A DNA stretch of 64,000 nt from a virus, in IMG/VR virus record IMGVR_UViG_3300046786_000331, positions 64,001 to 128,000 of that record; one strand, written 5' to 3'. Position 1 is the first letter of the stretch. Every line of letters starts with the position of its first letter. The position numbers and the translations under genes were made by a program. Below the pieces are notes generated by a model that worked only from the letters and a program-made list of their open reading frames with translations, was not told where the DNA came from and searched no databases. Of the stretch, positions 37-14,141 are shown piece by piece.

Positions 37-161
37 CATATAAAAACACACTAGTGCATTATAGTGAATCAGGTCGCTCCTGTGGAAGCTATCCATGTAT
101 CAATTGCCCTGGTGGGAAAGGTCGACGAGTGCGGTTCGATTCCGTAGTGTGTTTTTATATG
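37..161 (+). ncRNA. Helix-closed structured RNA element E1 (17-bp terminal inverted repeat, internal T-arm)
   Basis: CATATAAAAACACACTA (37-53) is the perfect reverse complement of 145-161; GCGG-TTCGATT-CCGT T-arm lies just before the 3' strand. Confidence 0.6.
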
Positions 162-235
162 GTGATGTAGTTCAGTGGTAGAACACCTCCTTCATACGGA
201 GACTGTCGGCGGTTCAAGTCCGTCCATCACTACCA
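161..235 (+). tRNA. tRNA-Met/Ile2 (CAT)
   Basis: Cloverleaf, loop TTCATAC, GGTTCAAGTCC T-arm, ACCA end. Confidence 0.9.
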
Positions 236-242
236 GATTTGT

Positions 243-316
243 TGGTCTATGGTGTAATGGTAACACAACAGACTTTGACTCTGTCGTTCCAGGTTCGAGC
301 CCTGGTAGGCCTGCCA
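243..316 (+). tRNA. tRNA-Gln (TTG)
   Basis: ACAGA-CTTTGAC-TCTGT arm, GCCA end. Confidence 0.95.
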
Positions 317-325
317 ACAAACAAT

Positions 326-417
326 GCCAGCGAGACTTGGTAGTCAGAGAGTCCTTATAAGACTTTTAGCGCCAGATTAGCGTTCTTGAGTGGGTTCGAT
401 TCCCACCGCTGGTACCA
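326..417 (+). tRNA. Non-canonical tRNA, anticodon TAT (nominal Ile), long variable arm
   Basis: GCCAGCG/CGCTGGT acceptor, 4-nt D-loop, loop CTTATAA, ~22-nt variable region, T-arm, ACCA. Confidence 0.8.
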
Positions 418-421
418 ATAT

Positions 422-496
422 CGGTCCTTAGTTCAATGGATAGAATGCCATGCTTCGAACTTGGAGATGTGGGTTCGATTCCTGCAGGACCGGCCA
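422..496 (+). tRNA. tRNA-Arg (TCG)
   Basis: Cloverleaf, loop CTTCGAA, GCCA. Confidence 0.93.
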
Positions 497-503
497 AAGA
501 TAT

Positions 504-578
504 GCGCCCGTCGTATAGTGGAGAATACACGATCCTACGAAGTTCGGAACGGTGGTTCGATTCCATCCGGGCGCACCA
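504..578 (+). tRNA. tRNA-Arg (ACG)
   Basis: Cloverleaf, loop CTACGAA, ACCA. Confidence 0.93.
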
Positions 579-583
579 ACAAT

Positions 584-657
584 GTTGTTCCTAGTGTAGT
601 GGCTGCACACCTGTCTGTGAAACAGGTAGAGAGGGTTCGATTCCCCGGTTCAACCCA
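584..657 (+). tRNA. tRNA-His (GTG)
   Basis: CCTGT-CTGTGAA-ACAGG arm, G-1/C73, CCA. Confidence 0.88.
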
Positions 658-667
658 AGGAAATATT

Positions 668-1087
668 ATGGAACAAATGAAAACATACAATACACTAAAA
701 GGTTCCGTGAAAACATTCGAAGAACTCTTAGGCCGTACATTGTACAAAGTAACAGCAGATGGCGAAGAATTAACTTTGTATCTATCCGAAACAAACTATG
801 TAAGATTTTATCACAGCCAAGACTGTTGCGAACATGTGTATATCGAAGATATCTGCGGTGACTTACAAGACTTAGTCGGAGCACCCCTGTTAATAGCAGA
901 AGAAGTATCAGACGAGTTATACGAAGCAGAACATACACCAGATTATTCCGAATCATACACATGGACATTCTATAAGTTTGCTACCCGAAAAGGATATGTA
1001 GACGTTCGGTGGTTTGGTAGTTCAAATGGTTATTATTCTGAAAGTGTAAGTGTTGATTTTGTTGACACCACCTTAGAAGAAGATTAG
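668..1087 (+). CDS. Conserved phage hypothetical protein (HxQDCCE...WTFYK...GxSNGYYSE)
   Basis: ATG at 668 after AAGGA; the longer track ORF (386) runs through tRNA genes. Confidence 0.8.
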   Translation: MEQMKTYNTLKGSVKTFEELLGRTLYKVTADGEELTLYLSETNYVRFYHSQDCCEHVYIEDICGDLQDLVGAPLLIAEEVSDELYEAEHTPDYSESYTWTFYKFATRKGYVDVRWFGSSNGYYSESVSVDFVDTTLEED

Positions 1088-1161
1088 GATGATTATTTCA
1101 GTGGTAGAATAACTCCTCGACACGGAGTAGGTCGCAAGTTCGAACCTTGCATCATCCACCA
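1087..1161 (+). tRNA. tRNA-Val (GAC)
   Basis: ACTCC-TCGACAC-GGAGT arm, ACCA. Confidence 0.9.
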
Positions 1162-1257
1162 TATATGTAAACACACTAGTAAAAGAACGAACATAGTATC
1201 TTAGGGCCTAGCCTGCGGCATTGTCGGATGACGGTGGCTAGTGTGTTTTCATATGTG
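1160..1257 (+). ncRNA. Helix-closed element E2
   Basis: 1160-1179 pairs with 1238-1257 (AAACACACTAG/CTAGTGTGTTT core); fills the tRNA-Val to tRNA-Phe spacer exactly. Confidence 0.55.
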
Positions 1258-1332
1258 CCGCGGTAGCTCATCAGGTAGAGCAGCAGACTGAAAATCTGTG
1301 TGTGGCTGGTTCGAGTCCAGCTCGTGGCACCA
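1257..1332 (+). tRNA. tRNA-Phe (GAA)
   Basis: Cloverleaf, loop CTGAAAA, ACCA. Confidence 0.95.
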
Positions 1333-1335
1333 TAT

Positions 1336-1419
1336 GCGACTGTGGTGTAATTGGTAGCCACAGCAGACTTAAAATCTGCCGCCTTGTGCGTACCGGTTCG
1401 AGTCCGGTCAGTCGCACCA
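1336..1419 (+). tRNA. tRNA-Leu (TAA)
   Basis: Class II cloverleaf, loop CTTAAAA, ACCA. Confidence 0.95.
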
Positions 1420-1450
1420 AATATATTTTCACATTGTTAACCAAAATATG

Positions 1451-1479
1451 TTGACAGGTGATAAATTAGAACATATACT
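1451..1479 (+). promoter_or_regulatory. Sigma70-type promoter
   Basis: TTGACA-17 bp-TATACT. Confidence 0.8.
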
Positions 1480-1509
1480 ATATAGATGCTGTTAACAAAA
1501 CAGTGTAAA

Positions 1510-1522
1510 TGTTCTTTAAAAA
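1510..1522 (+). promoter_or_regulatory. boxA-like antitermination site
   Basis: TGTTCTTTAAAAA vs rrn boxA TGCTCTTTAACAA, ~25 nt after the predicted transcription start. Confidence 0.5.
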
Positions 1523-1539
1523 TTCGTAAAGGTATTTTT

Positions 1540-1623
1540 GCCCCGGTGGTGTAATGGTAGCCACGCTGGTCTTAGAAGCCAGTGGAGAGATCCGTGTCGG
1601 TTCGAGTCCGACCTGGGGCACCA
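1540..1623 (+). tRNA. tRNA-Leu (TAG)
   Basis: Class II cloverleaf, loop CTTAGAA, ACCA. Confidence 0.95.
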
Positions 1624-1726
1624 TATCAAAGTACATAAATGCGTAGGCCACGCAGATGTAGCGGATTACAGCTTTGCCCTGTGCAGAGTAGACAGGTTCA
1701 ATTCCTGTGAATGTACTTTGATATGG
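1621..1726 (+). ncRNA. Helix-closed element E3 (16-bp perfect IR, four internal hairpins including a T-arm)
   Basis: CCATATCAAAGTACAT/ATGTACTTTGATATGG; internal ACAGG-TTCAATT-CCTGT. Confidence 0.6.
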
Positions 1727-1740
1727 TTTAAAAAATTAAA

Positions 1741-2626
1741 GGGTAGTTTATTATCCTGTAGTGTATGGTTCGCCCAGCATTACGAAGAATAAGTGAGGTG
1801 ACTCACCCAAAGCTAGAATGCCTACATACTAGCGCCAGCAATGGTTCATGTAAACAAGCCTGCTCACTGTCGCGAGGCAGCGTTCACTGATAAGACCGGT
1901 GGATGTAACAGCAAAGCTGATGTATGGGGAAGAATGTGTATCGACTGGCCCGCAAGGGAACCAGGGTGCATGAAAAGTAACAGGTGGTGCTGACTTCCAT
2001 ACAAAACCAATCAGTCAGTTGGTATGAGAAAGGGTAGTGTATTGGTTCGAAGGGTCGCACCTAAGAGCTCGTATGCAATGTAAATGGTTAGTGGGTTGTA
2101 GCAATACAGCACATCGATCGTGAAACATCACTGAGTAGCTCGCGAGGCAAAAGGTATGTGGTGAGTTGTATTTCGTATTCCAAAAGATTATGAAGCAACT
2201 GAGGCAGCTCATCGCGGTAGGTTCAATGTAGATCAATGGTAGATCGTCTGTCTTTTAAACAGAATGCTGTGGGTTCAAATCCCATCATTAACAAAAATGC
2301 AAAGACTGCCTCGGTTATGTGTGAAAAGTATCTAATACTTGACACGCAAGTGAATCAAGTCTAATGAAGCTCGCAAGGTAACATTAGTTTATACTGGAAG
2401 TTTCGTAAGTGGTTAGCGCCGCTGAATAGCTCGCAAGGTTAACGGGATAGATGGTGTAGAATAGCACATAACGACAAGCCTACTGCCTGGCTTTAAAAAC
2501 GGCGATGCTGTAAGCAGACTAGGATACCGCAAGGGTCTTAGTGGATGTCTAGAGAACGTATGCTCGCAAGGTGTACGGTAATGCTAGAGGTGCTTATGGC
2601 TTAAGGTGTAATCTCAACCTTAGGCA
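1741..2626 (+). ncRNA. Large ornate ncRNA, probably GOLLD
   Basis: ~890 nt without a credible ORF inside a phage tRNA array; many GCAA/GCGA-capped hairpins; 3' hairpin GCTTAAGGT-GTAATCTCA-ACCTTAGGC; embedded tRNA. Family assignment from recall, not searched. Confidence 0.7.
2221..2292 (+). tRNA. tRNA-Lys (TTT)-like domain embedded in the large ncRNA, no CCA
   Basis: D-arm GATC-AATGGTA-GATC, TCTGT-CTTTTAA-ACAGA, GTGGG-TTCAAAT-CCCAT; bulged acceptor stem. Confidence 0.75.
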
Positions 2627-2728
2627 CTATTATAAAACACATTGGGTTGTTGGTCTTACTTCGATAGTAAGGACAGCGGTGACTGAAGTACAAGGTCGAT
2701 ACGTTGCTACAGTGTGTTTCATAATAGT
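2626..2728 (+). ncRNA. Helix-closed element E4
   Basis: ACTATTATAAAACACATTG (2626-2644) pairs with CAGTGTGTTTCATAATAGT (2710-2728). Confidence 0.55.
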
Positions 2729-2732
2729 TTGT

Positions 2733-2807
2733 GCCTGGATAGCTCAGGGGGAGAGCGTCTGCTTTACACGCAGAGGGTCCGCGGTTCGAAACCGTGTCCA
2801 GGTACCA
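2733..2807 (+). tRNA. tRNA-Val (TAC)
   Basis: Loop TTTACAC, ACCA. Confidence 0.95.
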
Positions 2808-2813
2808 AATATT

Positions 2814-2901
2814 GGAGCATTGGCCGACCGGTTAAGGCAACAGATTGCTAATCTGTCATTCAGCAATGGGTGAGTAGGTTCGATTCCTACATGCTCCGCC
2901 A
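2814..2901 (+). tRNA. tRNA-Ser (GCT)
   Basis: Class II, loop TTGCTAA, GCCA. Confidence 0.95.
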
Positions 2902-2923
2902 GATACAAAAAGGAAAACTAAAA

Positions 2924-3109
2924 ATGATGAAACCAGGCAAAACATTTAAACTCAGCAAGCCTACTAAAACTATGCTTGCATTAGGCGGCTTCCGCAATCA
3001 GGAAGATCGTAATCGTTGGAAACGTGCAATGATTGATGCAGAACTTTGCAGTGCTGTACAGCCAAAGCGTGAAAAGCGTCCAAGCGGTCCACAAGGAAAT
3101 ACCCAGTAA
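2924..3109 (+). CDS. Small basic hypothetical protein
   Basis: AAGGA SD then ATG at 2924. Confidence 0.7.
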   Translation: MMKPGKTFKLSKPTKTMLALGGFRNQEDRNRWKRAMIDAELCSAVQPKREKRPSGPQGNTQ

Positions 3110-3369
3110 TGGTAGCCCGTAACGATATTACCGGCGATGTTATCCAAACAAAGGGTGCATCTTCTTCTTATCGTGATAACTACGATAACATTTTTAGGAA
3201 AGATAAAATGCAAGTTAGAGTACAAGAAAACGAGTCAGAAATTGGCAAGTGTGGTTGTGGTCGCAGTCCAACTGGAAAATGTATCGGGTGGCATGGTCTA
3301 ACCGAAGCCGACTTTCAATCTAAGTTAGCCAACTTTATGGCTGAAGAACAATTGAAAGAAGATAAGTAA
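3109..3369 (+). CDS. Hypothetical protein with CDGSH-like Cys/His (Fe-S/Zn) motif
   Basis: CGCGRSPTGKCIGWH; TAATG coupling. Confidence 0.65.
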   Translation: MVARNDITGDVIQTKGASSSYRDNYDNIFRKDKMQVRVQENESEIGKCGCGRSPTGKCIGWHGLTEADFQSKLANFMAEEQLKEDK

Positions 3370-3375
3370 AACACT

Positions 3376-3451
3376 GGGGGTATAGCTCATCTGGTAGAGC
3401 AGGTGCTTTGCAAGCATCAGGTGGCAGGTTCGAGTCCTGTTGCCTCCACCA
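3376..3451 (+). tRNA. tRNA-Ala (TGC)
   Basis: G3:U70, loop TTTGCAA, ACCA. Confidence 0.95.
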
Positions 3452-3503
3452 AGCACTCTCCATGACACACGGAGTATAATGTGATAAGTTGTGTGTTAAC
3501 TTT

Positions 3504-3577
3504 GCCCTTATAGTTAAATGGTATAACGACGGTTTTGTAATCCGTAATTTGCAGTTCGATTCTGTGTAGGGGCACCA
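3504..3577 (+). tRNA. tRNA-Thr (TGT)
   Basis: Loop TTTGTAA, ACCA. Confidence 0.92.
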
Positions 3578-3586
3578 AAGAATTAT

Positions 3587-3662
3587 TCCCTAGTAGCTCA
3601 GCGGTAGAAGCACCTGACTGTTAATCAGGGTGTCGGTGGTTCGATCCCACCCTGGGGAGCCA
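3587..3662 (+). tRNA. tRNA-Asn (GTT)
   Basis: Loop CTGTTAA, GCCA. Confidence 0.95.
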
Positions 3663-3694
3663 GTTTTGCTAGTTTCTTAAAACTAGCCAGTGAA

Positions 3695-3898
3695 GTGAAA
3701 GGTAGATGAGGATAGACAAAACCATTTGGCTTCATGCTAAATGAACAATACTCCAGACACCCTTGAAAAGTGTTCGTGTTGTTGTGCTCCGGCCCTAAAG
3801 ATTTTGTTATTTGATTTCCGGAAATATAATGGCCTCTGTGGATTGCTTTTTGAACATTGTAATTTGCACATTGTCCGGTCTATTACTTGACCTTTCAT
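3695..3898 (+). ncRNA. Candidate structured RNA with 7-nt periodic UUG tract
   Basis: Closing helices GTGAAAGGT/ACCTTTCAT and GATAGAC/GTCTATT; TTG at 3843, 3850, 3857, 3864, 3871 and at 3804, 3811. Confidence 0.55.
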
Positions 3899-3915
3899 GG
3901 ATCTGTTGTTATAAT
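3887..3915 (+). promoter_or_regulatory. Sigma70-type promoter for rpoZ
   Basis: TTGACC-17 bp-TATAAT. Confidence 0.7.
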
Positions 3916-3942
3916 AGTTTATACAAACACAAAGGACATAAC

Positions 3943-4188
3943 GTGGCTAGATATACATCAGAAGCAGCAGTAGAAGCAATTGGAAACAGATTTAACCTAG
4001 TGCTAGCCGCTAGTCAACGAACCCGTGAACTTAAACGAGGTCATGCACAACTTGTAGACGGTAAAGACGCAAGTTTTAACGTTACAGCTTTGCGTGAAAT
4101 CGAAGCAGGCAAATATACAATGAAAGACTACTTGGATTCGATTCCAAGAAAACAAAAAGGACGTAGAAATGAATTTGACATTACGTAA
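3943..4188 (+). CDS. rpoZ: RNA polymerase omega subunit homolog
   Basis: GTG after AAGGA; MAR...NRFNLVLAASQRTREL...TALREIEAG. Confidence 0.9.
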   Translation: MARYTSEAAVEAIGNRFNLVLAASQRTRELKRGHAQLVDGKDASFNVTALREIEAGKYTMKDYLDSIPRKQKGRRNEFDIT

Positions 4189-4744
4189 GGCAAACGCTAT
4201 CCAGAATAGCATCAACGAGGCAATCAAAGGCATCGAGATTAAGACAACTGTAGAACTAAACGAGTTCCAAGCAGTTGAGGCAGAGTTGCAAAAAGCAAAC
4301 ACAACATTGTTTGCAAATGACGCTCGCCGTCAAAAGCTGTTGTTGGCTTTGTATAACATTCGCGGGCTAGTTGGCACTGCGAACGCTAGTGCAGGTATTG
4401 ACCTGAGCCTAGCAAAGGCAGCGTTTATTGATAAACGCATTGCACAGCTCGACGAGCTAGCAAAGGCAGAAGTTATCACTGATCTTGCAGTGATTACGGG
4501 TAAGCTAGACAAGATTAAAAATGACAAGAGTGAAACTGCTCGTAGTCGTATCTACGGATACAATGACACAGTTTCAACTAGTGTTGTAAGTGCTGAGCAA
4601 TCAGCATCGATTAAGAATGAGATTAAAAATCTCAAGAAGCAAAAACAAAAACTCAATGACGAAGTTCTTGAGTTAAACATCAAGACAGAGATTCCTTTGT
4701 CAGATGATGTAGTGGCAACACTAACAGCTGAAGGCTTAATCTAA
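4169..4744 (+). CDS. Long coiled-coil protein (resembles DIP1984-like family)
   Basis: All-helical heptad pattern; C-terminal KKQKQKLNDEVLELNIKTEI; family resemblance by eye only. Confidence 0.75.
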   Translation: MNLTLRKANAIQNSINEAIKGIEIKTTVELNEFQAVEAELQKANTTLFANDARRQKLLLALYNIRGLVGTANASAGIDLSLAKAAFIDKRIAQLDELAKAEVITDLAVITGKLDKIKNDKSETARSRIYGYNDTVSTSVVSAEQSASIKNEIKNLKKQKQKLNDEVLELNIKTEIPLSDDVVATLTAEGLI

Positions 4745-4940
4745 CAGACCCCGGGTTCCGAGCAACCGTTATTGCTCGGGGTTATTGAATAGACCAAACT
4801 ATTCACTGTGCGTAGGATCTACAGCAAGGCCTGTTCGGCGACTTGAGAATATCCTAGGTAGACGAATAGTCCAACCAAAAGGGACAACGTGGACGGAGTA
4901 AACGCCCAGTTTAGGGCTCCTGTGGTGGGAGTGGCTAAAC
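4745..4940 (+). ncRNA. Candidate structured RNA
   Basis: GC-richer intergenic stretch with hairpins CCGAGCAA/TTGCTCGG, TGAATAG/CTATTCA, TAGGAT/ATCCTA, GTTTAG/CTAAAC. Confidence 0.45.
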
Positions 4941-5058
4941 ACTTTATTAGAATACATTAGGAGTTTGTCTGGAATCCAGTATCAAGCAATTGATATCCAG
5001 AACGGAGTAACGTGGGCAAGATGGATTTTGCTACGCCGACAGTGTATTCTAATAAAGT
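4941..5058 (+). ncRNA. Helix-closed element E5
   Basis: ACTTTATTAGAATACATT pairs with AGTGTATTCTAATAAAGT; internal TATCAA-GCAA-TTGATA hairpin. Confidence 0.55.
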
Positions 5059-5069
5059 TAAATAGTTGT

Positions 5070-5633
5070 ATGTCGACAGATAGATTTTACAAACAAACTA
5101 CAATTCCTGCTCCTAGTGTAGATTACAAAACAATATGGAATGTAGATCCTAAAGATCCTGCTGACACAAATCCAAGATGGTTAACTTATCCTAAGGATAG
5201 TAAAATCTGGAATGACGACATATTAAATAGATTAAAAACTGTTGGACTAAAACCGAGACTTATAAGAGTCTTTAGATGGAAACCCAACAGTGTGTTTCCT
5301 TGGCATATCGACGGTTCAGTAAATGAAATTACTGAATTTGCAATTAATTGGGTATATGAAGGCAGTGGAATTATTCAGTGGAATTCAAGTTTAGAATTAC
5401 CTAAACCTGCTGAAAAAAATTACCATCTTGCTTACGGGTCTTTTAATGGTAAAGCCGAAGATAAATTTGAAGCAGAAGCATTAGGACATGGATGTGTAGT
5501 TAACACTACTATTCCACACAGAGTTTTGAATTTAAGTGACGTTCATAGAATTACTGTTTCAATACAGTTTGGAAATGAATTCACTTATAGTGAAACTGTA
5601 GAGAAATTAAAATCCTGCGGTTTCATAGAATAA
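5070..5633 (+). CDS. Fe(II)/2OG oxygenase-like (cupin) protein
   Basis: WHID...PHRV...RITVS; TAAATA 5 nt before ATG. Confidence 0.7.
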   Translation: MSTDRFYKQTTIPAPSVDYKTIWNVDPKDPADTNPRWLTYPKDSKIWNDDILNRLKTVGLKPRLIRVFRWKPNSVFPWHIDGSVNEITEFAINWVYEGSGIIQWNSSLELPKPAEKNYHLAYGSFNGKAEDKFEAEALGHGCVVNTTIPHRVLNLSDVHRITVSIQFGNEFTYSETVEKLKSCGFIE

Positions 5634-5638
5634 GTTAT

Positions 5639-5712
5639 AGCGGGTAGGGCGGCCACCACTCCAGTCTCATAAGCTCGGAGCATCCCAGGTTCAAATCCTG
5701 GACCCGCATCCA
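5639..5712 (+). tRNA. Atypical tRNA-Met (CAT), initiator-like 1:72 mismatch
   Basis: Loop CTCATAA, T-arm CCAGG-TTCAAAT-CCTGG, TCCA; degenerate D-arm. Confidence 0.7.
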
Positions 5713-5717
5713 TATAT

Positions 5718-5794
<77 letters not shown>

Positions 5795-5810
5795 TCAACA
5801 TAAAGGCAAT

Positions 5811-5993
5811 ATGACTAAAGAAGAAGAAAAAGCAGCAACAGATTTAGCACTTGAAGAATTCTTTGCAAAAGGCGGCGTGGTTCAAAAATTAAAACCTAAT
5901 CAAAGTGGAAGAGTAGAAGGTGCAGGTTATTCACCTTGGTCTAAGAAACCCTCTACTAGTCCGTTAGCAAATCCTCCTGAAGACGAAGAATAA
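5811..5993 (+). CDS. Small hypothetical protein
   Basis: AAAGG SD; EFFAKGGVVQKL motif. Confidence 0.7.
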   Translation: MTKEEEKAATDLALEEFFAKGGVVQKLKPNQSGRVEGAGYSPWSKKPSTSPLANPPEDEE

Positions 5994-6068
5994 CTTGCTG
6001 TAGTTCAATGGATAGAACGGCTCTCTCCTAAAGAGTAGATCCAGGTTCGATTCCTGGTGGCAGGACCA
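5994..6068 (+). tRNA. tRNA-Arg (CCT)
   Basis: Loop CTCCTAA, ACCA. Confidence 0.93.
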
Positions 6069-6082
6069 GCTATAAATATGTT

Positions 6083-6916
6083 ATGGAATTTTCTTCTCTA
6101 GCATACGCAAAAATAAATCTTGAATTTGATCGAGAAATATTCATTCAAGAATATGATGCACATATCCTTCCGCACACTCGTCAACTGATGAACGGCGAAG
6201 GCGGTATGTTAGCAACTAAAGAATTAAATAAAATTTGGAACATGGTTCCTGAAGAAGAATACAGCACTGCTGATTCTTGGGAACAGCCAGGAGATGTTAC
6301 AACATTCAAAGCTATCATTAAAGGTCGTCAAATGTGGGATTTTGTACAAATCCTAACACTAAAAACTACCGATGGTGATCATCCTTTAATTAAACGTATG
6401 GCTGAAAAGGGTAGCGTAGGTTTACGCAATGAAACACTTGGCCGTGAATACTTTATTAAAGAACAATTTAAAGATTTAAAAATAGTTAAATGGATTTACG
6501 ATAGTTTACCATTAACTATGATTAACAGTATACAATGTGTATCTTTGCCACCGAACTCTTTCTCTACAATTCATAGAGATGGCAAAGGATTGATATCTGA
6601 AAATTTCAGTGGCGGAGTAAACAAAGTTTACAAGTCTGGTTTTGTTGTTATTAACATAAACATAACAGACGGTGGTGTTCCGTTATATTGGGCACCGGAT
6701 CATGCTCCTAGAGCTTGCGAAAAAGCAAACGATCCTGTATACTTAACTAACGATTATTTGTTACATGGTGTTCCAATTTGTACATCAAGACGTAGACAAA
6801 TAAGAGTTACTGGAATTCCAACACAGGAATTAGAGAGTTTGATAGATAAAGATACAATTTTTGATCTAGGCGAAAATTATAAATTTGCCGAGTTAAAGGA
6901 TCATTATAAATATTAA
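6083..6916 (+). CDS. Fe(II)/2OG oxygenase-like protein, paralog of 7663-8487
   Basis: IHRD...LHGV...RRQIR; TATAAATA at 6071-6078. Confidence 0.75.
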   Translation: MEFSSLAYAKINLEFDREIFIQEYDAHILPHTRQLMNGEGGMLATKELNKIWNMVPEEEYSTADSWEQPGDVTTFKAIIKGRQMWDFVQILTLKTTDGDHPLIKRMAEKGSVGLRNETLGREYFIKEQFKDLKIVKWIYDSLPLTMINSIQCVSLPPNSFSTIHRDGKGLISENFSGGVNKVYKSGFVVININITDGGVPLYWAPDHAPRACEKANDPVYLTNDYLLHGVPICTSRRRQIRVTGIPTQELESLIDKDTIFDLGENYKFAELKDHYKY

Positions 6917-6919
6917 CAT

Positions 6920-6993
6920 GCGGGGTTCGTATAGTGGTAATACCTTAGCCTTCCAAGCTAATGCTGAGAGTTCGATTCTCTTACCCCGCTCCA
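6920..6993 (+). tRNA. tRNA-Gly (TCC)
   Basis: Loop CTTCCAA, TCCA. Confidence 0.95.
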
Positions 6994-6997
6994 TTTT

Positions 6998-7573
6998 ATG
7001 CACACAGTAATAGACCAAAACGATATTTTTCGAAAGTTTAATTTTAGTTCCGTGATTACACCGGAAGATAATCAAGAAGCCATAGGCATTATAAAAAGTA
7101 TTATTGCCGACGGAAACTATTTTACTAATTCTCCAAAATATCAAACAAAAGAAAATATTTTTGCTAGACAGGAATCTGTATGGTTAAAGTATAGAATGAG
7201 TTTTTTGTTTAGTGTGTTTATGTACTTGGGTCGTGAAGTTAAGGTATCAAATATGATGGCCTGGAGTTTCATGACAAATCTCGAAGGTGCAGAAGATAGA
7301 GAAAAATTGTGGCATAATCATTGGCATCCACAAAATCCAAATAACAAAATGTTAAGCGGAATCTTTTATCTTCACATTCCAGAGAATGTACAAGACAGAG
7401 ATTATTGCGGAACAGAAATGGCTCCCAATGGTCCTACCGGTGACGGTAAATACTTCGTTAAACCAACTGATGGAAATTGGTTAGTTTATCCAAGTAATCA
7501 ATGGCATAGACCCGGCATTGTGCAAAGCAATGATTATAGGTTTATTTTAGCTGTTGATGTAGAATATCAATAA
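6998..7573 (+). CDS. Putative 2OG-Fe(II) oxygenase
   Basis: HNH...LSGIFYL...YPS..WH...RFILA. Confidence 0.7.
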   Translation: MHTVIDQNDIFRKFNFSSVITPEDNQEAIGIIKSIIADGNYFTNSPKYQTKENIFARQESVWLKYRMSFLFSVFMYLGREVKVSNMMAWSFMTNLEGAEDREKLWHNHWHPQNPNNKMLSGIFYLHIPENVQDRDYCGTEMAPNGPTGDGKYFVKPTDGNWLVYPSNQWHRPGIVQSNDYRFILAVDVEYQ

Positions 7574-7574
7574 T

Positions 7575-7650
7575 GCGGGCGTAGCTCAGTTGGTAGAGCA
7601 TTACCTTGCCAAGGTAAATGTCGAGAGTTCGAACCTCTTCGCCCGCTCCA
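7575..7650 (+). tRNA. tRNA-Gly (GCC)
   Basis: Loop TTGCCAA, TCCA. Confidence 0.95.
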
Positions 7651-7662
7651 ATAAATACCTTT

Positions 7663-8487
7663 ATGAATTTTTCAACACTTGCTCATGCAAAACTAAATCT
7701 AAGTTTTGATCAAGAGCTTTTCATAAAGGAATATGACAAGCGCATATATCCTAAATCATTCCCCATTTCTGCGGGAGTTGAATCTATCAATCGTACCATC
7801 AAATTGAATCAAACATGGAACATGGTTGATCCTAATATCTACGAACAAATCAATACAAACAGAGTTGACGAAAAGGGTGTGTATACTCCTATCGATAGAG
7901 GTCGCAAATCTTGGGTCATGCGACAACTGCTAGAACTAGATACTACAGAGATAACAAATCCTGTACTATTAAAATTTGCATCTATCGGAGGTGTTGGGTT
8001 GCGCAATGCTGCATACCAACATAATTTTAAAGTTAAAGAAGATTGTAAAGATTTACAGATTGTTGATTGGATTTATAAAAATTTACCTTTTGAAAAAATA
8101 GTAAGTATACATTGTGTTGCTATTGACCCAGATGGGTTTGCTCCGATACATAGAGATGACAAGAGTTTATTTGACAATAAGTCTAGTGTAGGCACTAATT
8201 TGTTCTACAAAAATAACTTTGTAATCATTAACATAAACGTCAGCAGTGGCGGTGTTCCTTTGTGTTGGGGACTTGACATGCCTAATGCAGATAACTGCCA
8301 TAAAGCTGACGATGCTGTTTATCTAACTAATGATTATTTCTTACACGGTGTTCCGCAGGTTACATCTCGAAGAAGACAAATACGTGTATCCGGAATTCCA
8401 AAACCAGAAATGTACGAACTATTTGATAAACAATCTATAGTTGACGTAGGCAACGATTATATTTTTAATCCTTTGTATCCAGGTTAA
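7663..8487 (+). CDS. Fe(II)/2OG oxygenase-like protein, paralog of 6083-6916
   Basis: IHRD...LHGV...RRQIR; N- and C-terminal blocks shared with the paralog. Confidence 0.75.
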   Translation: MNFSTLAHAKLNLSFDQELFIKEYDKRIYPKSFPISAGVESINRTIKLNQTWNMVDPNIYEQINTNRVDEKGVYTPIDRGRKSWVMRQLLELDTTEITNPVLLKFASIGGVGLRNAAYQHNFKVKEDCKDLQIVDWIYKNLPFEKIVSIHCVAIDPDGFAPIHRDDKSLFDNKSSVGTNLFYKNNFVIININVSSGGVPLCWGLDMPNADNCHKADDAVYLTNDYFLHGVPQVTSRRRQIRVSGIPKPEMYELFDKQSIVDVGNDYIFNPLYPG

Positions 8488-8515
8488 ATAGTAGCACTTA
8501 AAGGAAACATATTAA

Positions 8516-9976
8516 ATGGATGTTGTATTATGGAATGCGGGACCGGATTATACCCCCTATACAATTTTTAGAACATTAGGCCCATATAAAATTTCTCATG
8601 CAACAAGAAATGCAGGTTACACTTCGCAGGTTATCGATCATGTTAATTGGATGACTGAAGAGGAGTTGTATAACTGTACAATTAAGTTTGTTGACAACGA
8701 AACAACGCTTCTTGGTATTTCCACAACATTCTTAATGGCTGGTACTCATGAACTGCCTGCACACGCATTAAATGTCTTACATCGAATCACAGAAGAGTTT
8801 CCTAAAATACATGTTGTGTTTGGCGGCTATCAGGCAAGAGATCCGACCTTAAGAAACATCATTAGGGCCAAGTACTCTGTTATATTAGAGTACGGTGAAG
8901 ATACCTTTGTTGAGTTATTAGAATATCACAAAGGTAAAGGCAAGTTGCCTCCTTTCACATTGATTACAAGACCCTGGGGCAACGTAAAAGTTTTCAAAAC
9001 TCCCAAGGTACAAAAATTCGATATCGAAAAAGACAATCATTTGTTCACTGATCAAGATTGTATTCTTCCCAACGAAACACTGCCTATTGAAATCAGTAGA
9101 GGCTGTATTTTCAAATGTAAGTTTTGTAATCACTTAATGCTAGGGCGAGGTAAATTAGATTACCTTCGAAGCATGGAATGTGTAAAACAAGAGTTGATTC
9201 ACAATTACGAGAAGTGGAACATTACAAACTATTACATCATTTGTGATACGTTTAATGACACTGAGTATAAGATGCAAGAGTGGCATAAGATGGTAACGTC
9301 ATTGCCTTTCAAGATACAATATACTGCATACCTAAGAGCAGACTTATTAGACAGATATCCAGATGTTCCTTATCTTTTAAAAGAGTCAGGACTGATATCT
9401 GGATTCCACGGAATTGAAACTCTAAGTCAACACGGATCAACAGTCATCGGAAAAGGATGGAGTGGCAAGAAAGCCAAGGACTATATTCCTAAACTCTATC
9501 ACGATATCTGGGGTGGTGAAGTTTTTCAAACCTTGAGTTTTATTGTTGGCTTGCCCGGGGATACTAGAGAAACATTTGTTGATACATTAGATTGGTTTGA
9601 GCAGAATGATTTACATCACATGGCTATTCACAATCTAGGAATCAACAACAATAAGTTTAACAAGCATCTAAGTGAGTTTGACTTAAATGCTGAAAGCTAT
9701 GGTTATACGTTTCCTTGGCCCGAGCGTCCGTGGGCATGGAAAAATGATCAATGGGATCATGATCAAGTAGAAGCGTTTGTTAAAGAACAACAACCTAGAA
9801 TCGGAAAAATATCTGCATGGTATGGTTCGTGGGTTACACTAATGTTGATGCAATACGGGTTTGATAAGAGCTTGTTTAAAAAGGAAGCATCTAGAACAGC
9901 ATTTACAGTACCTCAGTTAAATAGTTTAGCGAAAGAACAAATTCAGCGTTATATTAAAAAAATATTAGAACTATGA
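8516..9976 (+). CDS. B12-binding-type radical SAM protein
   Basis: SRGCIFKCKFC (CxxxCxxC), N-terminal GISTTF...VFGG, GIET, FIVGLPGDT. Confidence 0.85.
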   Translation: MDVVLWNAGPDYTPYTIFRTLGPYKISHATRNAGYTSQVIDHVNWMTEEELYNCTIKFVDNETTLLGISTTFLMAGTHELPAHALNVLHRITEEFPKIHVVFGGYQARDPTLRNIIRAKYSVILEYGEDTFVELLEYHKGKGKLPPFTLITRPWGNVKVFKTPKVQKFDIEKDNHLFTDQDCILPNETLPIEISRGCIFKCKFCNHLMLGRGKLDYLRSMECVKQELIHNYEKWNITNYYIICDTFNDTEYKMQEWHKMVTSLPFKIQYTAYLRADLLDRYPDVPYLLKESGLISGFHGIETLSQHGSTVIGKGWSGKKAKDYIPKLYHDIWGGEVFQTLSFIVGLPGDTRETFVDTLDWFEQNDLHHMAIHNLGINNNKFNKHLSEFDLNAESYGYTFPWPERPWAWKNDQWDHDQVEAFVKEQQPRIGKISAWYGSWVTLMLMQYGFDKSLFKKEASRTAFTVPQLNSLAKEQIQRYIKKILEL

Positions 9977-11109
9977 TACCCGAGATAAGTTACCCAAATG
10001 TGTTAGTACCCGTTGCGTTTCCAGAGGATCCTCTGTTAGACAAGGCATCGGTATTGTCTCAATTTGACAATAACACAGGGTTACAGGTATTGCATCTTAA
10101 AGAAGATATCCTTAAACCAGATGTAGTAAAGATGCTTGCTGACAGAAATCTGTCAATAGATAAGATAGATGTTTGGCGCTGGAACCTATCAATGACTAGA
10201 GGACAACCACCGCACACTGATGGCGGCTACGGAGATACAAAAGGTAGAAAGGTTGGACTGAATTGGTCATTGGCTCCTGATAATAGCAGTATCGACTTTT
10301 ACGATACTGCGTATGGTACTCCACAATTCGAAGCCATTGAAGATAGAAGCCATACTTTTTGGAAGATGGCTGAAGGCACTAAGCCGTTAGTTTCGTGGCG
10401 CAATAGATATCCCTCAGTTATTAATACTCAAACACCACATGCTATCACTGGACCCGAGGGTGAGTTTCGTTATAGCATGACAATAAAGTTCGTAGGAAAT
10501 CCTAGCTTCGACGAAGTAATTTCTAATTTGTGGGATTTACGATTAGATACTGATTGCTGGCCATTAAAAATGTCAGATGAAGAAGTTGAGATTGTTAAAC
10601 AAGAAGTAATCAAATTAGAAAAACTTCCAAACGTTGTTCAGAATGTAGGAGAGAAAATTGCTTCTTATAAGCTGCCTATTGTTCCTGATAGTTTGCTGGT
10701 AAAAACAATAGAAAAATACTGTAAGAGAAAATTTAAATCTTTTCGAATTTTTCATATGCAACCAGGTGTAAGAGCCGAGATGCATGTTGACTATGATCAA
10801 TGGCTTAAAGTTATTCCTGGATATGCTTTAAACTTTCCATTGTTTGGCTGCGAAGATAGCAGCGTAGAATTTTTTAGAAATCTTGGTGATCAAGAAGCTA
10901 GATCGCACGAAAAGTCCGGAGTGGGCGGATATCTATATCCCACAGATCCTAATAAGGTGTTTTTAAATCATACATTGTATATGTTAGAGCCACATCTTAT
11001 TAGAGTTAACGTTCCACACTTAGTTGATAATTTTTCTAATCATGAAAGAAAGATTTTAAGTGTGCGATTCTTTGAAGAAGAAAACGACCTCCCTTCAAAC
11101 ATAATTTAG
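9973..11109 (+). CDS. Tandem two-domain cupin/2OG oxygenase-like protein
   Basis: PHTD...PHAI...RYS and MHVD...PHLV...RKILS. Confidence 0.7.
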   Translation: MIPEISYPNVLVPVAFPEDPLLDKASVLSQFDNNTGLQVLHLKEDILKPDVVKMLADRNLSIDKIDVWRWNLSMTRGQPPHTDGGYGDTKGRKVGLNWSLAPDNSSIDFYDTAYGTPQFEAIEDRSHTFWKMAEGTKPLVSWRNRYPSVINTQTPHAITGPEGEFRYSMTIKFVGNPSFDEVISNLWDLRLDTDCWPLKMSDEEVEIVKQEVIKLEKLPNVVQNVGEKIASYKLPIVPDSLLVKTIEKYCKRKFKSFRIFHMQPGVRAEMHVDYDQWLKVIPGYALNFPLFGCEDSSVEFFRNLGDQEARSHEKSGVGGYLYPTDPNKVFLNHTLYMLEPHLIRVNVPHLVDNFSNHERKILSVRFFEEENDLPSNII

Positions 11110-11184
11110 CTGGCCATCGTATAATGGATAATACAACTCTCTTCTAAAGAGTGAATGTGGGTTCAATTCCTGCTGGCCGGACCA
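11110..11184 (+). tRNA. tRNA-Arg (TCT)
   Basis: Loop CTTCTAA, ACCA. Confidence 0.93.
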
Positions 11185-11189
11185 GACAT

Positions 11190-11263
11190 GCTCTCATAGT
11201 TAAATGGTAGAACGCCTCTTTGGTATGGAGGTGATGAAAGTTCGATTCTTTCTGAGAGCACCA
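11190..11263 (+). tRNA. tRNA-Thr (GGT)
   Basis: Loop TTGGTAT, ACCA. Confidence 0.92.
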
Positions 11264-11292
11264 TTGACAAAGTAAATAAGAGAAAGTATAAT
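11264..11292 (+). promoter_or_regulatory. Consensus sigma70 promoter (leaderless to ATG 11299)
   Basis: TTGACA-17 bp-TATAAT. Confidence 0.85.
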
Positions 11293-11298
11293 AACAGA

Positions 11299-11529
11299 AT
11301 GTATAAAGTAAACGGAAAAAACGTAATGTATGAAGTGCATACATTAGATGAAGCAATGAAGTGGGCAAAGCAAATGAATGAGTTTGTTACTATTGTAGGT
11401 GACGACTTTGAAGTATGTGGAATGTTCGGAGTAGACAGCATCAAGGACGGAAAGTGTCCAGACGGTGTTGCATACGATTGGAACAAGGCATCACGTATCG
11501 GAAGAGTAAAGAAAGAACGAGTAGTATAA
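11299..11529 (+). CDS. Hypothetical protein
   Basis: ORF directly after promoter, coupled to pth2. Confidence 0.75.
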   Translation: MYKVNGKNVMYEVHTLDEAMKWAKQMNEFVTIVGDDFEVCGMFGVDSIKDGKCPDGVAYDWNKASRIGRVKKERVV

Positions 11530-11909
11530 TGGAACACAAGCAAGTCATTGTAATGCGTAAGGATTTAAACATGCGAAAGGGCAAGTTAGTTGCTCAAGGA
11601 GCTCATGCTTCTCTTGGCGCAATTTTAAGTCTTTGTAAGCAGGACGGAGACAAGCTAATTCTTGAAATGGACGAACGTACTAGGCCTTGGCTTACAGGAC
11701 GTTTCAAGAAAATTTGTGTTTATGTAAACACTGAGCAAGAGTTATTAGATATTCATCAGGAAGCAAAACTGCATGGACTAGTAACCAGCCTTATACAAGA
11801 TGCAGGACTAACAGAATTTGGTGGTGTTAAAACATATACCGCTGTTGCAGTAGGTCCGGATCGAGAAGATAGAATCGATGCAGTTTGTAAACATTTACCG
11901 TTATATTAA
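11529..11909 (+). CDS. pth2: Peptidyl-tRNA hydrolase type 2
   Basis: KQVIVMRKDLNMRKGKLVAQGAHAS...IQDAGLTE...TAVAVGP...HLPLY. Confidence 0.92.
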   Translation: MEHKQVIVMRKDLNMRKGKLVAQGAHASLGAILSLCKQDGDKLILEMDERTRPWLTGRFKKICVYVNTEQELLDIHQEAKLHGLVTSLIQDAGLTEFGGVKTYTAVAVGPDREDRIDAVCKHLPLY

Positions 11910-11919
11910 GGAGAACCAT

Positions 11920-12597
11920 ATGAAACGTGTAATCGAAATTCGTGCCGCAGAAGGTGGCGAAGATAGTAAGTTATTTGTAAGTGATCTCGCGACTGCTTAC
12001 AGCAAATTAGGAATGAAGCTGGGCTGAACTACCCGCCTGATAGATGTGCGTCAAGGTGAATGTAGTTTAGAAGTTCAGGGCGCAGATTTATCCGGCTTAG
12101 ATAACGAGCCAGGTGGACATAGGATACAGCGAGTTCCACCAACCGAAAGGAAGGGGCGTGTCCATACAAGCACAGTAACGGTTGCAGTCATAGACTCCGA
12201 CACAGAAATTGGATCTGTTTCTATACTAGAAAAAGATTTAAAAATCGAATGGTATAGCGGTACTGGTGCTGGAGGTCAATACAGGAACAAACATCAAAAC
12301 TCATGCCGGATAACTCACATACCTACAGGTACTGTAGCTAAAGCAGAGTGCAGAAGTAGGACAAATAGTCTTGAAGAAGCTATGGCTGCTATACAACAAC
12401 GAGTTGACACAGCAGCTAATAGGCAGTACACTAATAGTATCGCTAGCAATAGAAAGCAACAAGTTGGCTCCGGAATGCGAGGAGACAAAATTCGCACTTA
12501 TCGCTTTCAAGACGATACTGTGCAGGATCACGTAACCGGTAAAAAAGCAAACGCTAAAAAAGTGTTATCTGGTAACTTTGACTTACTTTGGAACTAA
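11920..12597 (+). CDS. N-truncated RF1-like class I release factor with in-frame TGA at 12025-12027
   Basis: AAGGAG SD, ATG 11920; IEIRAAEGG, G-stop at the usual GW position, HRIQRVPPTE..GRVHTS (PxT), GAGGQ, RIRTY-like KIRTY. Confidence 0.85.
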
Positions 12598-12816
12598 ATG
12601 GCAAAAGACGATATCATTGAATTGACAGGCACAGTTGAAGAAGTATTGCCGGGCAATATGTTTAAAGTGAAGGTAGACAACCTTCCTAATCTATTGCTCT
12701 GCTATACTAGCGGAAAACTTAAACAACACAAGATTAGAATTATTCTCGGTGACAAAATTAAGTTAGAAGTTAGTCCATACGACCTCACTAAAGGTCGTGT
12801 AACATACAGATTATAA
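12598..12816 (+). CDS. infA: Translation initiation factor IF-1
   Basis: MAKDDIIE..G.V.EVLP...SGKLK...IRII.GD...EVSPYDLTKGRVTYR. Confidence 0.95.
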   Translation: MAKDDIIELTGTVEEVLPGNMFKVKVDNLPNLLLCYTSGKLKQHKIRIILGDKIKLEVSPYDLTKGRVTYRL

Positions 12817-12817
12817 T

Positions 12818-13069
12818 ATGACAAAAGAAATTCCAGTTCACAGAGATCAATTAGGTCGAGTACTTAATATGGGAGACTGTGTTGCTTATCCTCAGAGCAA
12901 CAGTCTTGTGATTGGTGTTGTTCGTAAGATTAATCCTAAGATGATTGGTGTTCGAAGAATCGGTAAAAATGGTTGGGGTTCAGAGAAAAACAAATATCCT
13001 GTAGATTGTGTTAAACTCGACGGCCCTGAAGTTACAATGTTTATTATCAAGAACGCAGGTACAGAATGA
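12818..13069 (+). CDS. Hypothetical protein
   Basis: Tightly packed ORF. Confidence 0.7.
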   Translation: MTKEIPVHRDQLGRVLNMGDCVAYPQSNSLVIGVVRKINPKMIGVRRIGKNGWGSEKNKYPVDCVKLDGPEVTMFIIKNAGTE

Positions 13070-13260
13070 TTTACATTTTAATGATTTGGACAGTAGTAGG
13101 TGTAGGTGCTGCTGATAGGACTCCTAACATTATCAAAATGGATTGGCGTCCACTCGGCGAGTTTTATTCGGGTATAGATAACGGTAAAGAAATGTGTGAA
13201 AAAGCTGCTCGTGAGCTTGGTTTGAAAACTGAAAACTATCGTTGCATTAGGAGCAAGTAA
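13066..13260 (+). CDS. Small hypothetical protein with hydrophobic N-terminus
   Basis: ATGA overlap. Confidence 0.65.
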   Translation: MIYILMIWTVVGVGAADRTPNIIKMDWRPLGEFYSGIDNGKEMCEKAARELGLKTENYRCIRSK

Positions 13261-13520
13261 TGAAATTCATCCGTCAAGTAATCAGAGGTGCAGGATATCT
13301 TGAAGGCTACGGTGATCACCCGGGCAAAGACGCAGTAGTGATAACGCTTCTTGTTTGCGGTCTTGCAGGAATTGAGAAGGGCGGACTTACTGGATTCCTG
13401 GGAGGCATGGCCATTGGAGCAATCTTTGTTCTTCCGTTATTTGTCGTCGGTTGTATTGATCGTGCAAATGCCTGTGATAAACAACAGGCTCTGTTATTAG
13501 AGAAGATTAAGAATAGTTAA
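13260..13520 (+). CDS. Hypothetical membrane protein
   Basis: Two hydrophobic segments. Confidence 0.65.
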   Translation: MKFIRQVIRGAGYLEGYGDHPGKDAVVITLLVCGLAGIEKGGLTGFLGGMAIGAIFVLPLFVVGCIDRANACDKQQALLLEKIKNS

Positions 13521-13535
13521 CCGTGAGGAGTTATC

Positions 13536-13907
13536 ATGAGTATGTATAATATGATTTTTGGAATGAACCCAGACACTGATAAGATCCTATCATTGTTGGG
13601 TAAGACACAGGGCGATTTCGGTCGCTTCCGCAGTGTATTTCTCGAGGACGGTTATATTGTTGTTCACACACGCAACGGTGGTGGCAATCGTGAAGACTAT
13701 GAAGATGTCTTTGAAGAAATGTCTGATCATCCTTGGTACAGTCACGACGAAGATGACAGCTTCGACTGCACTTATGCAAACATCTACTTCAAGGTGCCTG
13801 AAGGTAAAGAAGAAACATTAGTAGCATTGCACAACTTTGATAAAGGTGCTAATCCTGCTAATCAGTGGGCAGAACTCTTTGCCATGATGGAAGCATTGAA
13901 GAAGTAA
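13536..13907 (+). CDS. Conserved phage hypothetical protein
   Basis: GAGGAG SD; RFR...TRNGGGNR...DDSFDCTYA. Confidence 0.8.
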   Translation: MSMYNMIFGMNPDTDKILSLLGKTQGDFGRFRSVFLEDGYIVVHTRNGGGNREDYEDVFEEMSDHPWYSHDEDDSFDCTYANIYFKVPEGKEETLVALHNFDKGANPANQWAELFAMMEALKK

Positions 13908-14141
13908 ATGACTGTATACGCAGACGGAATAAAGTATCAAACAATGTATCTTCCTTGTGGAGGTGTTGCAGATTTTGACGAGTCAAGCGGTATTAGCTAT
14001 CGCTGTGAGTGCGGCGCAGTTGTGGGTAGTATTGGTCAACCACGTGAGTGTGTTGAAGAAGCAAAGAAATATGATGTCCTTAAAGCCTTAGGCGGCAAAG
14101 GTTGGGATTATAATAAAGGAGAACCTTATGCCTTGGATTGA
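13908..14141 (+). CDS. Small Cys-containing hypothetical protein
   Basis: LPCGG...YRCECGAVVGS. Confidence 0.7.
   Translation: MTVYADGIKYQTMYLPCGGVADFDESSGISYRCECGAVVGSIGQPRECVEEAKKYDVLKALGGKGWDYNKGEPYALD

Follow-up and report, generated by a model that had tools for sequence, protein, structure and literature searches.

Small RNA modules closed by a conserved helix form a large uncatalogued family in the tRNA arrays of uncultured freshwater jumbo phages

Introduction

Phage tRNA islands are known to carry RNAs that are unexplained, among them the species 1 and species 2 RNAs of phage T4, GOLLD and ROOL. The T4 RNAs (rnaC and rnaD), which are small stable RNAs processed from the T4 tRNA cluster, are closest in kind to the five elements studied here, E1 to E5, found in the tRNA array of an uncultured virus represented by IMG/VR record IMGVR_UViG_3300046786_000331. 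This record is a viral contig of 145,727 bp with 39.7% GC and covers 41% of a genome of ~350 kb, as estimated by CheckV. The stretch analysed (the window) comprises the 64,000 nt at positions 64001–128000 of the record, and coordinates refer to the window unless the record is named. Each element belongs to a class of modules in which a leader and a trailer pair over 16–22 bp, forming a helix termed the clamp, around an insert of 30–130 nt. An initial annotation, made from the window alone, had described E1–E5 as a family of five RNAs in which a conserved handle carries variable payloads.

Like rnaC and rnaD, the clamp modules are non-tRNA small RNAs of 100–140 nt whose genes are interspersed with phage tRNA genes or follow them, in the same orientation. 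A T4-type gene of this class is a non-tRNA gene in a phage tRNA cluster that is co-oriented with the tRNAs and ends at tRNA processing sites, and the modules agree with it in position and orientation. In rnaC, a T-arm lies just before the 3' end and the two ends pair over a short distance, as in E1 and E3. Unlike the modules, the T4 RNAs have no clamp of 16–22 bp, no handle common to both and no interchangeable inserts, and the two groups share no Rfam family, their sequences not having been compared otherwise.

In the working of the helix, the closest systems are the rRNA leader-trailer stems of bacterial and some phage precursors, which are cut by RNase III and in which ~20 bp surround a structured RNA within a tRNA-containing precursor. 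The clamp has the corresponding feature, a double-stranded helix of about two turns (16–22 bp) that is formed by flanking sequences and covaries on the transcribed strand. It differs in that the enclosed RNA is only 30–130 nt long, the sequence of the helix is conserved across inserts and RNase III cleavage is putative; moreover, instead of a single stem around GOLLD there is a self-contained hairpin on each side of it. YrlA (RF02553), which occurs in some phages, also combines a long terminal stem with a tRNA-like module that has a T-arm. However, the tRNA-like part of YrlA lies on the distal side of the Ro-binding stem, whereas in the modules the T-arm abuts the terminal helix and most members lack a tRNA-like part. 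PeSL cassettes of T4-type phages and miniature inverted-repeat transposable elements (MITEs) are likewise short moving segments with inverted conserved bounds and presence/absence variation, but the clamp modules are fixed in orientation, show no target duplications, are under selection for pairing at the RNA level, are confined to tRNA arrays and have unrelated interiors.

GOLLD (RF02032) shares the genomic niche of the modules, although E1–E5 themselves do not match RF02032. The occurrence of GOLLD in phage tRNA islands and of tRNAs inside the GOLLD linker has already been published (PMC12286853), and flanking clamps go unmentioned there.

Results and discussion

Five helix-closed elements in the tRNA array

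The arms of all five elements were located as described initially (Table 1), and the observation was confirmed as real and beyond chance. When the whole record was scanned with exact seeds, long-range inverted repeats of 16–17 nt were found only at E1, E3 and E5, the remainder being 14 nt or shorter. The terminal helix is part of the predicted fold of every element (z-scores from −4.1 to −6.5), and none of 200 shuffled sequences folded as well. The family is not restricted to these five, as had been supposed; at least three more precede the window, at record positions 61254–61327, 62996–63093 (with a T-arm) and 63738–63830. The initial annotation had proposed a covariance model of the five elements; a model of the helix (R1), for which 38 members were used, finds the family in the tRNA array of the record and in relatives. 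Over the 145.7-kb record its matches are confined to the array apart from a weak one at 25933–26015 (E 0.069), and the member at 63738–63830 was recovered at 49.9 bits though it was outside the training set.

Table 1. Coordinates and properties of the clamp modules and of associated features in the window. Irregular pairs are numbered from the A of ACCA where a position is given.
Feature	Positions	Strand	Closing helix	Irregular pairs	Insert	Fold z-score	R1 score (bits)	Remarks
E1	37–161	+	37–53/145–161, 17 bp, perfect		91 nt	−4.1	45.2	
E2	1160–1257	+	1160–1179/1238–1257, 20 nt, 90% complementary	one U·G; U·U at bp 9, the family mismatch position	58 nt, folds as three hairpins	−5.5	51.5	
E3	1620–1727	+	1620–1636/1711–1727, 17 bp, perfect			−6.5	52.1	
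E4	2626–2728	+	2626–2644/2710–2728, 19 nt, 89% complementary	A·C at bp 9; U·G at bp 17	65 nt, unique	−4.1	60.5 (best)	
E5	4941–5058	+	4941–4958/5041–5058, 18 bp	one U·G, at bp 17	82 nt, unique	−6.0	52.6	
GOLLD RNA	1728–2625	+						neighbour, not a member of the clamp family; RF02032, 214.9 bits (gathering score 150)
Sigma-70-like promoter	1451–1479	+						TTGACA-17-TATACT, 11 of 12 consensus positions; consensus match only

The record holds 34 tRNA genes, without exception on the + strand, between 61.4 and 75.3 kb. As reported initially, the ends of the elements abut those of tRNAs. The 3' end of E1 is the first base of tRNA-Met (161–235), nothing but E2 lies between the CCA of tRNA-Val(GAC) and base 1 of tRNA-Phe, and E3 starts inside the CCA of tRNA-Leu(UAG) and is directly followed by GOLLD. 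E4 ends 5 nt upstream of tRNA-Val(UAC).

Directly before the 3' strand of the helix, a T-arm-like hairpin of the GGTTCRANYCC type is present in E1 (130–146) and E3 (1692–1708), in agreement with the earlier description, and absent from E2, E4 and E5. The E3 insert has four hairpins arranged as in a class-II tRNA, namely D-like, anticodon-like, variable-arm-like and T-arm. Nevertheless, neither ARAGORN nor RF00005 called a tRNA on E1–E5, and membership of the tRNA family was rejected, the T-arm of E1 and E3 being the only one of the tested features that agreed and the anticodon-like loop of E3 having 6 nt instead of 7. Permuted or split tRNAs were likewise set aside: when the inserts were doubled together with 0–12 bp of the helix, ARAGORN returned real tRNAs only. 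Searches of Rfam 15 at permissive thresholds (E ≤ 1), covering the first 12 kb of the window, the upstream members and a 130-nt RNA of relatives described below, gave tRNAs and GOLLD only. As judged from these searches and in line with the initial annotation, no catalogued RNA family fits the clamp modules.

Occurrence in related phages

Relatives were collected using a 191-aa protein encoded at 4169–4744 as the anchor, which gave 80 IMG/VR loci with 65–80% identity, from freshwater metagenomes and on contigs of up to 353 kb. An unbiased inverted-repeat scan revealed 112 distinct helix-closed elements near tRNAs in these loci, and related freshwater jumbo-phage contigs contain more than 150 further copies, situated in tRNA arrays on the tRNA strand. 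Practically all tRNAs of the 80 loci (1,204 of 1,205) share one orientation. As a rule, the 5' arm begins within the CCA of the tRNA before it, with an overlap of 3–4 nt in 49 cases, and the next tRNA lies at −3 to +7 nt from the 3' arm. An independent scan of IMG/VR with the core pattern AAAACACAYT-N(30–60)-ARTGTGTTTY matched at least 119 loci; among the matches listed, 87 loci have three or more tRNAs, and all 68 strand-specific matches are on the tRNA strand. In a 98%-complete relative of 353 kb, R1 finds the tRNA array only, with 2–3 copies, and the number per phage ranges from this to at least 8 in the record of the window.

The arm types are specific to the slot and are kept between phages. 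The slot between tRNA-Lys and tRNA-Met (Lys|Met) has arms of the type (T)ACCATATAAAAACACAYT, the E4 slot, 4–5 nt past GOLLD, has ACTATTCTAAAACACATT, and the head of the array has GTATTAAAGC..., while ACCATTAAAAAATAGCATT encloses the 130-nt RNA after tRNA-Leu. The arm type of E4 itself, ACTATTMTAAAACACATT, is retained in the E4 slot of relatives with a different insert each time. Similarly, the E5 slot, downstream of the gene for the 191-aa protein, has ACTTTA... arms after a conserved ...GCTAGAC hairpin, and in relatives these arms hold many unrelated inserts and are usually followed by tRNA-Met. At L066:5738–5835, a canonical tRNA-Gly(TCC) (RF00005, 68 bits) with no encoded CCA lies within a 13-bp leader-trailer extension of its acceptor stem that resembles the E3 arms (AGAGTACAT). 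This case shows that the clamp architecture can hold a bona fide processed RNA.

The family was found in none of the cultured phages in GenBank. There, the tRNA-array region was matched by single tRNAs at most, and the 486-aa radical-SAM protein encoded among the tRNAs and the 130-nt RNA had no match. Cultured GOLLD arrays were found only in Xanthomonas phages, one of which, BUDD, lacks inverted repeats of this kind in its GOLLD-bearing tRNA array; thus, the family is specific to a clade rather than a general feature of GOLLD. Nothing on such clamps was found in the literature on non-coding RNAs of tRNA arrays and on T4 species 1 RNA.

A near-perfect palindrome of 81 nt (ATTTCAAAACAC...; ATTTCAAAACACA...TGTGTTTTGAAAT) was also encountered in many isolate-derived, prophage-like IMG/VR contigs without tRNAs (L096, L110, L113, L119 and others). 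It was set aside as unrelated, having been picked up only through the common core AAAACACA.

Selection on the helix as RNA

In the alignment of 38 members, 94.7% of the cells in the 18 helix pairs are standard base pairs. Double (compensatory) changes were found at 14 of the 18 pairs, a level that none of 500 shuffles reached, and only 30–54% of cells were paired when the register was slid.

Departures from Watson-Crick pairing are concentrated at two positions. At base pair 9, 27 of 59 helices lack a Watson-Crick pair (A·C in 21, C·A in 3), as do 24 of the 38 aligned members, and 16 of 54 helices have U·G at base pair 17. Outside base pair 9, G·U (38 cases) far exceeds A·C or C·A (7 cases). 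The same preferences were seen in the pattern set, in which either state was allowed. Of the matches listed, 63 carry A·C and 26 carry A-U as base pair 9, and 52 of 89 carry U·G as base pair 17.

These data refine two statements made initially. The proposed shared core, AAAYACAY with RTGTRTTT, is present in E1, E2 and E4, whereas E3 and E5 conform to it only loosely. The argument that G-U-compatible mismatches favour RNA on the + strand was right in direction, with three U·G pairs in the five elements, but E4 also has an A·C and E2 a U·U, and A·C at one fixed position, the commonest irregularity of the family, had been missed. The leading irregularity A·C would read as G·U on the opposite strand, and it is the remaining helix positions that decide for the + strand. 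Because the irregularities are wobble-type, strand-specific and position-specific, and because orientation is fixed and changes are compensatory, the data point to an RNA helix, transcribed in the direction of the tRNAs, as the target of selection. The clamp modules are therefore considered to be a real family at the RNA level, with a probability of about 0.9.

Inserts

Members with the canonical core alone contain 110 distinct inserts of 30–83 nt (median 49), which fall into 89 similarity clusters, and the arms are conserved far better than the inserts. The description of a conserved handle with variable payloads was thus borne out, with a covarying helix conserved in sequence across many contigs and ~90 unrelated clusters of inserts. 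In the single pair suitable for an estimate of the rate of change, the flanks are 84–89% identical and the inserts 55% identical. The GC content of the inserts is 49.6%, compared with 40.3% for the loci.

Some inserts are nevertheless conserved. That of E2 has six homologs in relatives, with covarying hairpins and an invariant UUAGGGCYUAGCCUGCGGC. In the E3 family, comprising four sequences, 15 of 37 pairs survive double changes, and the outer helix is wholly rewritten in two members. As judged by covariation, the inserts of E2 and E3 are conserved structured RNAs, that of E3 being a predicted non-decoding tRNA look-alike. The 130-nt structured RNA of relatives (e.g. L010:354–522, L028:8726–8894 and L045:2224–2392) is also wrapped by clamps; it shows covariation at 34 of 47 pairs and occurs in three slot types but not in the window.

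Hairpins with a C(AUA)G triloop are present in 36 of 92 inserts, and in 23 of these the stem has at least 4 bp, as compared with a shuffle mean of 2.5. They may represent a shared binding or tertiary motif. Examples of C(AUA)G or C(GUA)G triloops are at record positions 63750–63770, L008:1103–1117 and L040:6967–6983; in a subset GUAAGGAC...ACACC follows, and E4 has AUAGUAAGGACAG.

GOLLD and expression

GOLLD has a variable 5' domain from ~1741 and a conserved 3' domain at 2158–2620, with tRNA-Lys(UUU) embedded at 2222–2293. It is bracketed by E3, whose end is the start of the GOLLD 5' domain, and E4, which starts 5 nt past the GOLLD 3' end. Two clamp modules bracket GOLLD in four phages, i.e. 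the phage of the window and those of loci L010, L017 and L040. The promoter listed in Table 1 could give rise to a unit composed of tRNA-Leu(UAG), E3, GOLLD, E4, tRNA-Val and tRNA-Ser.

Parts of the stretch are contained in six RNA-labelled freshwater runs, four of which, from lake metatranscriptomes, were examined as assembled contigs by k-mer depth. Such contigs show neither ends nor strand, and the low depth over E1–E4 was not used as evidence in either direction. The depth of GOLLD (~1741–2610) was 160–16,000, as compared with ~1–20 in the flanks, a difference of 100–1000 times; E1–E4 and the tRNAs alike were at ~1–12. The depth steps fall between the end of E3 (1727) and 1741 and between ~2610 and the start of E4 (2626); hence E3 and E4 are outside the abundant GOLLD species. 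Since the tRNAs are equally low, the libraries under-sample small structured RNAs, and the depth over the elements is uninformative as to the abundance of their RNAs. One contig (depth 196) joins 2223 to 2290 and corresponds to a form of GOLLD without the embedded tRNA.

Proposed role of the clamp and alternatives

That the helix serves as a handle for processing, protection or recognition is the mechanism best supported by the data and has a somewhat better than even chance. In such a pathway, the array would be transcribed as polycistronic precursors, and 3' maturation at the upstream CCA together with RNase P cleavage at the next tRNA would release each module. Its complementary ends would then pair into an almost blunt-ended duplex; the processed ends in the Lys|Met slot, for instance, would be 5'-UAUAA... 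and ...CUAUAU-3', with an overhang of 1 nt. The duplex could isolate the folding of the insert from its neighbours and guard it against exonucleases and the 5'-end-dependent RNase E, and a duplex conserved in sequence would provide a common address for a double-strand-specific factor. A shared factor of this type is suggested because the sequence and two wobble pairs 8 bp apart are conserved in a helix of two turns. The inserts would be separate cargo, those of E1, E4 and E5 being lineage-specific.

An RNase III site would be consistent with the two-turn length and with the irregularity in the middle of the helix. No gene for RNase III, a double-stranded-RNA-binding domain (dsRBD; dsrm) or RtcB was found in the record (41% complete) or in relatives up to 98% complete. 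As the phages encode no RNase III or dsRBD, the RNase III of the host, cutting near the central mismatch, would be the default candidate; after the cut, the outer A/U-rich half, including the tRNA CCA, would fall apart and be trimmed. The assignment of RNase III as the specific factor is tentative and, on balance, doubtful. A wider proposal, in which the clamp is an address label for one shared phage or host factor and the fast-changing inserts are interchangeable specificity modules (decoys, aptamers or guides) in a phage-host arms race, so that the tRNA arrays would house a modular RNA cassette system, possibly acting with the GOLLD nanocage, is unlikely. If the inserts do prove to be specificity modules, they would represent a new kind of RNA-based phage-host interaction.

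Several observations weigh against a handle that delivers functional RNAs. No phage-encoded RNase III, dsRBD or other known RNA-processing gene was found, and most tRNA-tRNA junctions of the array lack such a helix, which is thus not needed for tRNA release. Folding of the inserts alone hardly exceeds that of shuffled sequences (mean z −0.36), and the inserts of E1, E4 and E5 have no homolog in ~200 related loci; some inserts may be filler. Expression is known from assembled contigs only, in which the low depth over E1–E4 may reflect precursor RNA or DNA carry-over, and transcription starting at a weak promoter-like site at 1727–1754, rather than processing, could account for the 5' end of GOLLD. 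Finally, turnover of the modules as DNA cassettes could on its own keep the arms similar.

Such turnover is evident. One 44-nt insert is present in two slots with different outer arms (L010:1416–1499 and L017:5474–5559), and two slots, Val|Phe and Lys|Met, can carry the E2 insert. In one metatranscriptome contig precisely E1 (37–159) is missing, position 36 being joined to 160 by a single T (...GGAGCT-T-TGGTG...). Modules are therefore acquired, deleted and swapped as DNA, the probable route being recombination in the conserved core. These findings, along with the use of three slot types by the 130-nt insert and the variable number of copies per phage, are what would be expected if the modules were mobile or recombination cassettes of the MITE or PeSL kind, with arms that serve as recombination or transposition ends and an incidental RNA structure. 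This explanation is quite improbable. No target-site duplications were detected in the flanks of ~90 elements, and the junction without E1 has neither a duplicated site nor the footprint of an empty site. All strand-specific copies have one orientation, the mismatches are wobble-type and fixed in position with pairing preserved by compensatory changes, and no copies were found outside the tRNA arrays of the record and the 353-kb relative. The interiors are unrelated, unlike those of a MITE family, and no transposase or reverse transcriptase was found. The initial annotation had named target-site duplications and presence/absence polymorphism as signs of MITEs; a presence/absence variant of E1 does exist, but for the reasons given identity with MITEs was rejected.

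A helix that acts purely as punctuation, its double-stranded form marking where tRNAs and GOLLD are to be cut or processed apart, as in rRNA leader-trailer stems, and its inserts being tolerated filler, would account for the lack of similarity between inserts of the same slot in different phages, for their poor folding, for the absence of homologs of three of them, for the far better conservation of the arms and for the location of modules at both GOLLD boundaries. It is less easily reconciled with the compensatory changes conserved in the inserts of E2, E3 and the 130-nt RNA, with a GC content of the inserts ~10 points over the locus mean, with the absence of inserts below ~30 nt or with the recurrent triloops, and most tRNA junctions manage without a signal of this kind. 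It is accordingly regarded as improbable, though less so than mobile DNA. Mimics of tRNAs that act as decoys for host anticodon nucleases or toxins, or Y-RNA-like adaptors that would tether a Ro60-type protein, were also proposed in the initial annotation. The T-arm-like hairpins, which occur by the 3' strand not only in E1 and E3 but also in the member at record positions 62996–63093, the class-II layout of E3 and the T-arm near the 3' end of T4 species 1 RNA, likewise encoded in a tRNA cluster, agree with this view. A decoy could fit the few tRNA-shaped inserts but not the rest, most of which have no tRNA feature, and the anticodon-like loop of E3 has no conserved anticodon. The adaptor proposal was not supported: YrlA gave no hit on E1–E5 at E ≤ 1, its sole hit, in the upstream part, being of 20.4 bits (gathering score 69) over two real tRNAs, and a TROVE domain (Ro60, PF05731) was absent from the record and five relatives, including the 98%-complete one, although the host may encode an Rsr protein. 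Membership of YrlA was thus rejected, and either role, decoy or adaptor, has a low probability. Guide RNAs were a further early suggestion; in a guide or antisense system, the clamp would load a common effector and the hypervariable insert would pair with a host or rival-phage target. A conserved handle with a hypervariable insert of 30–80 nt does resemble guide systems, and the diversity of inserts is extreme. However, the best sense or antisense match of an insert within the record is 11–13 nt, which is the chance level, the inserts are internally folded rather than open, and reverse transcriptase, RtcB and dsRBD are absent, Cas-like and TnpB-like partners not having been searched for; a guide function is thus very improbable. 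A retron RNA (msr-msd) was rejected as well, because no RVT_1 reverse transcriptase was found in the record or in four relatives.

A selected RNA helix with exchangeable inserts, the preferred reading, adds to the unexplained RNAs of tRNA islands a large searchable family defined by one stem, two fixed wobble pairs and ~90 unrelated inserts, and GOLLD, a very abundant RNA, has this stem at either border. The modules offer constructs for the study of how non-tRNA RNAs are excised from tRNA precursors and stabilised, and the handle sequence offers a bait for the factor that binds it. They also provide new structured RNAs, namely E2, the tRNA-shaped E3 and the 130-nt family.

Neighbouring genes and other RNAs

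Two long tRNA-like genes of 88–92 nt are located at 326–417 and L085:2245–2332. The former is tRNA-Ile(TAT) according to ARAGORN, and both score 32–34 bits with the tRNA-Sec model, under the gathering score of 47. Upstream of the window, record positions 62941–63248 (L085:2941–3248) contain several sequences resembling tRNAs, with T-arms and CCA ends, which were not called by ARAGORN, e.g. Ala(TGC)-like and Asn(GTT)-like ones with odd D regions, which are interleaved with the clamp element at 62996–63093.

Protein genes located among the tRNAs encode a DUF7448 protein (668–1087; phrog_2650), a 2OG-Fe(II) oxygenase-like protein (6998–7573) and a radical-SAM protein (8516–9976), and all three may be RNA-modifying enzymes. 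Further small proteins are encoded within the array at 2924–3109 and 3109–3369. The 191-aa protein encoded beside the E5 slot is highly conserved and all-helical (AlphaFold model, pLDDT 83.5); it has no structural match in the PDB at E ≤ 0.001, and neither Pfam nor PHROG has a family for it. At its start, the gene for this protein is overlapped by an RNA polymerase omega-like gene (Rpb6 domain, E 4e-11), the two spanning 3943–4744, and a strong promoter lies ahead of the pair at 3887–3915. The other gene flanking E5 (5070–5633) has no relatives in IMG/VR.

Between the gene for the 191-aa protein and E5, positions 4745–4940 form a conserved structured non-coding stretch ending in ...GGCTAAAC, which has no Rfam match. 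Its terminal hairpin covaries (CAGTCTAGGGC...GTAGCTAGAC in relatives), and 15 of 26 predicted pairs show covariation among 16 phages. In run X6, a contig covering 4760–4886 has adapters at both ends and a depth of ~800, which suggests a discrete abundant RNA of ~127 nt.

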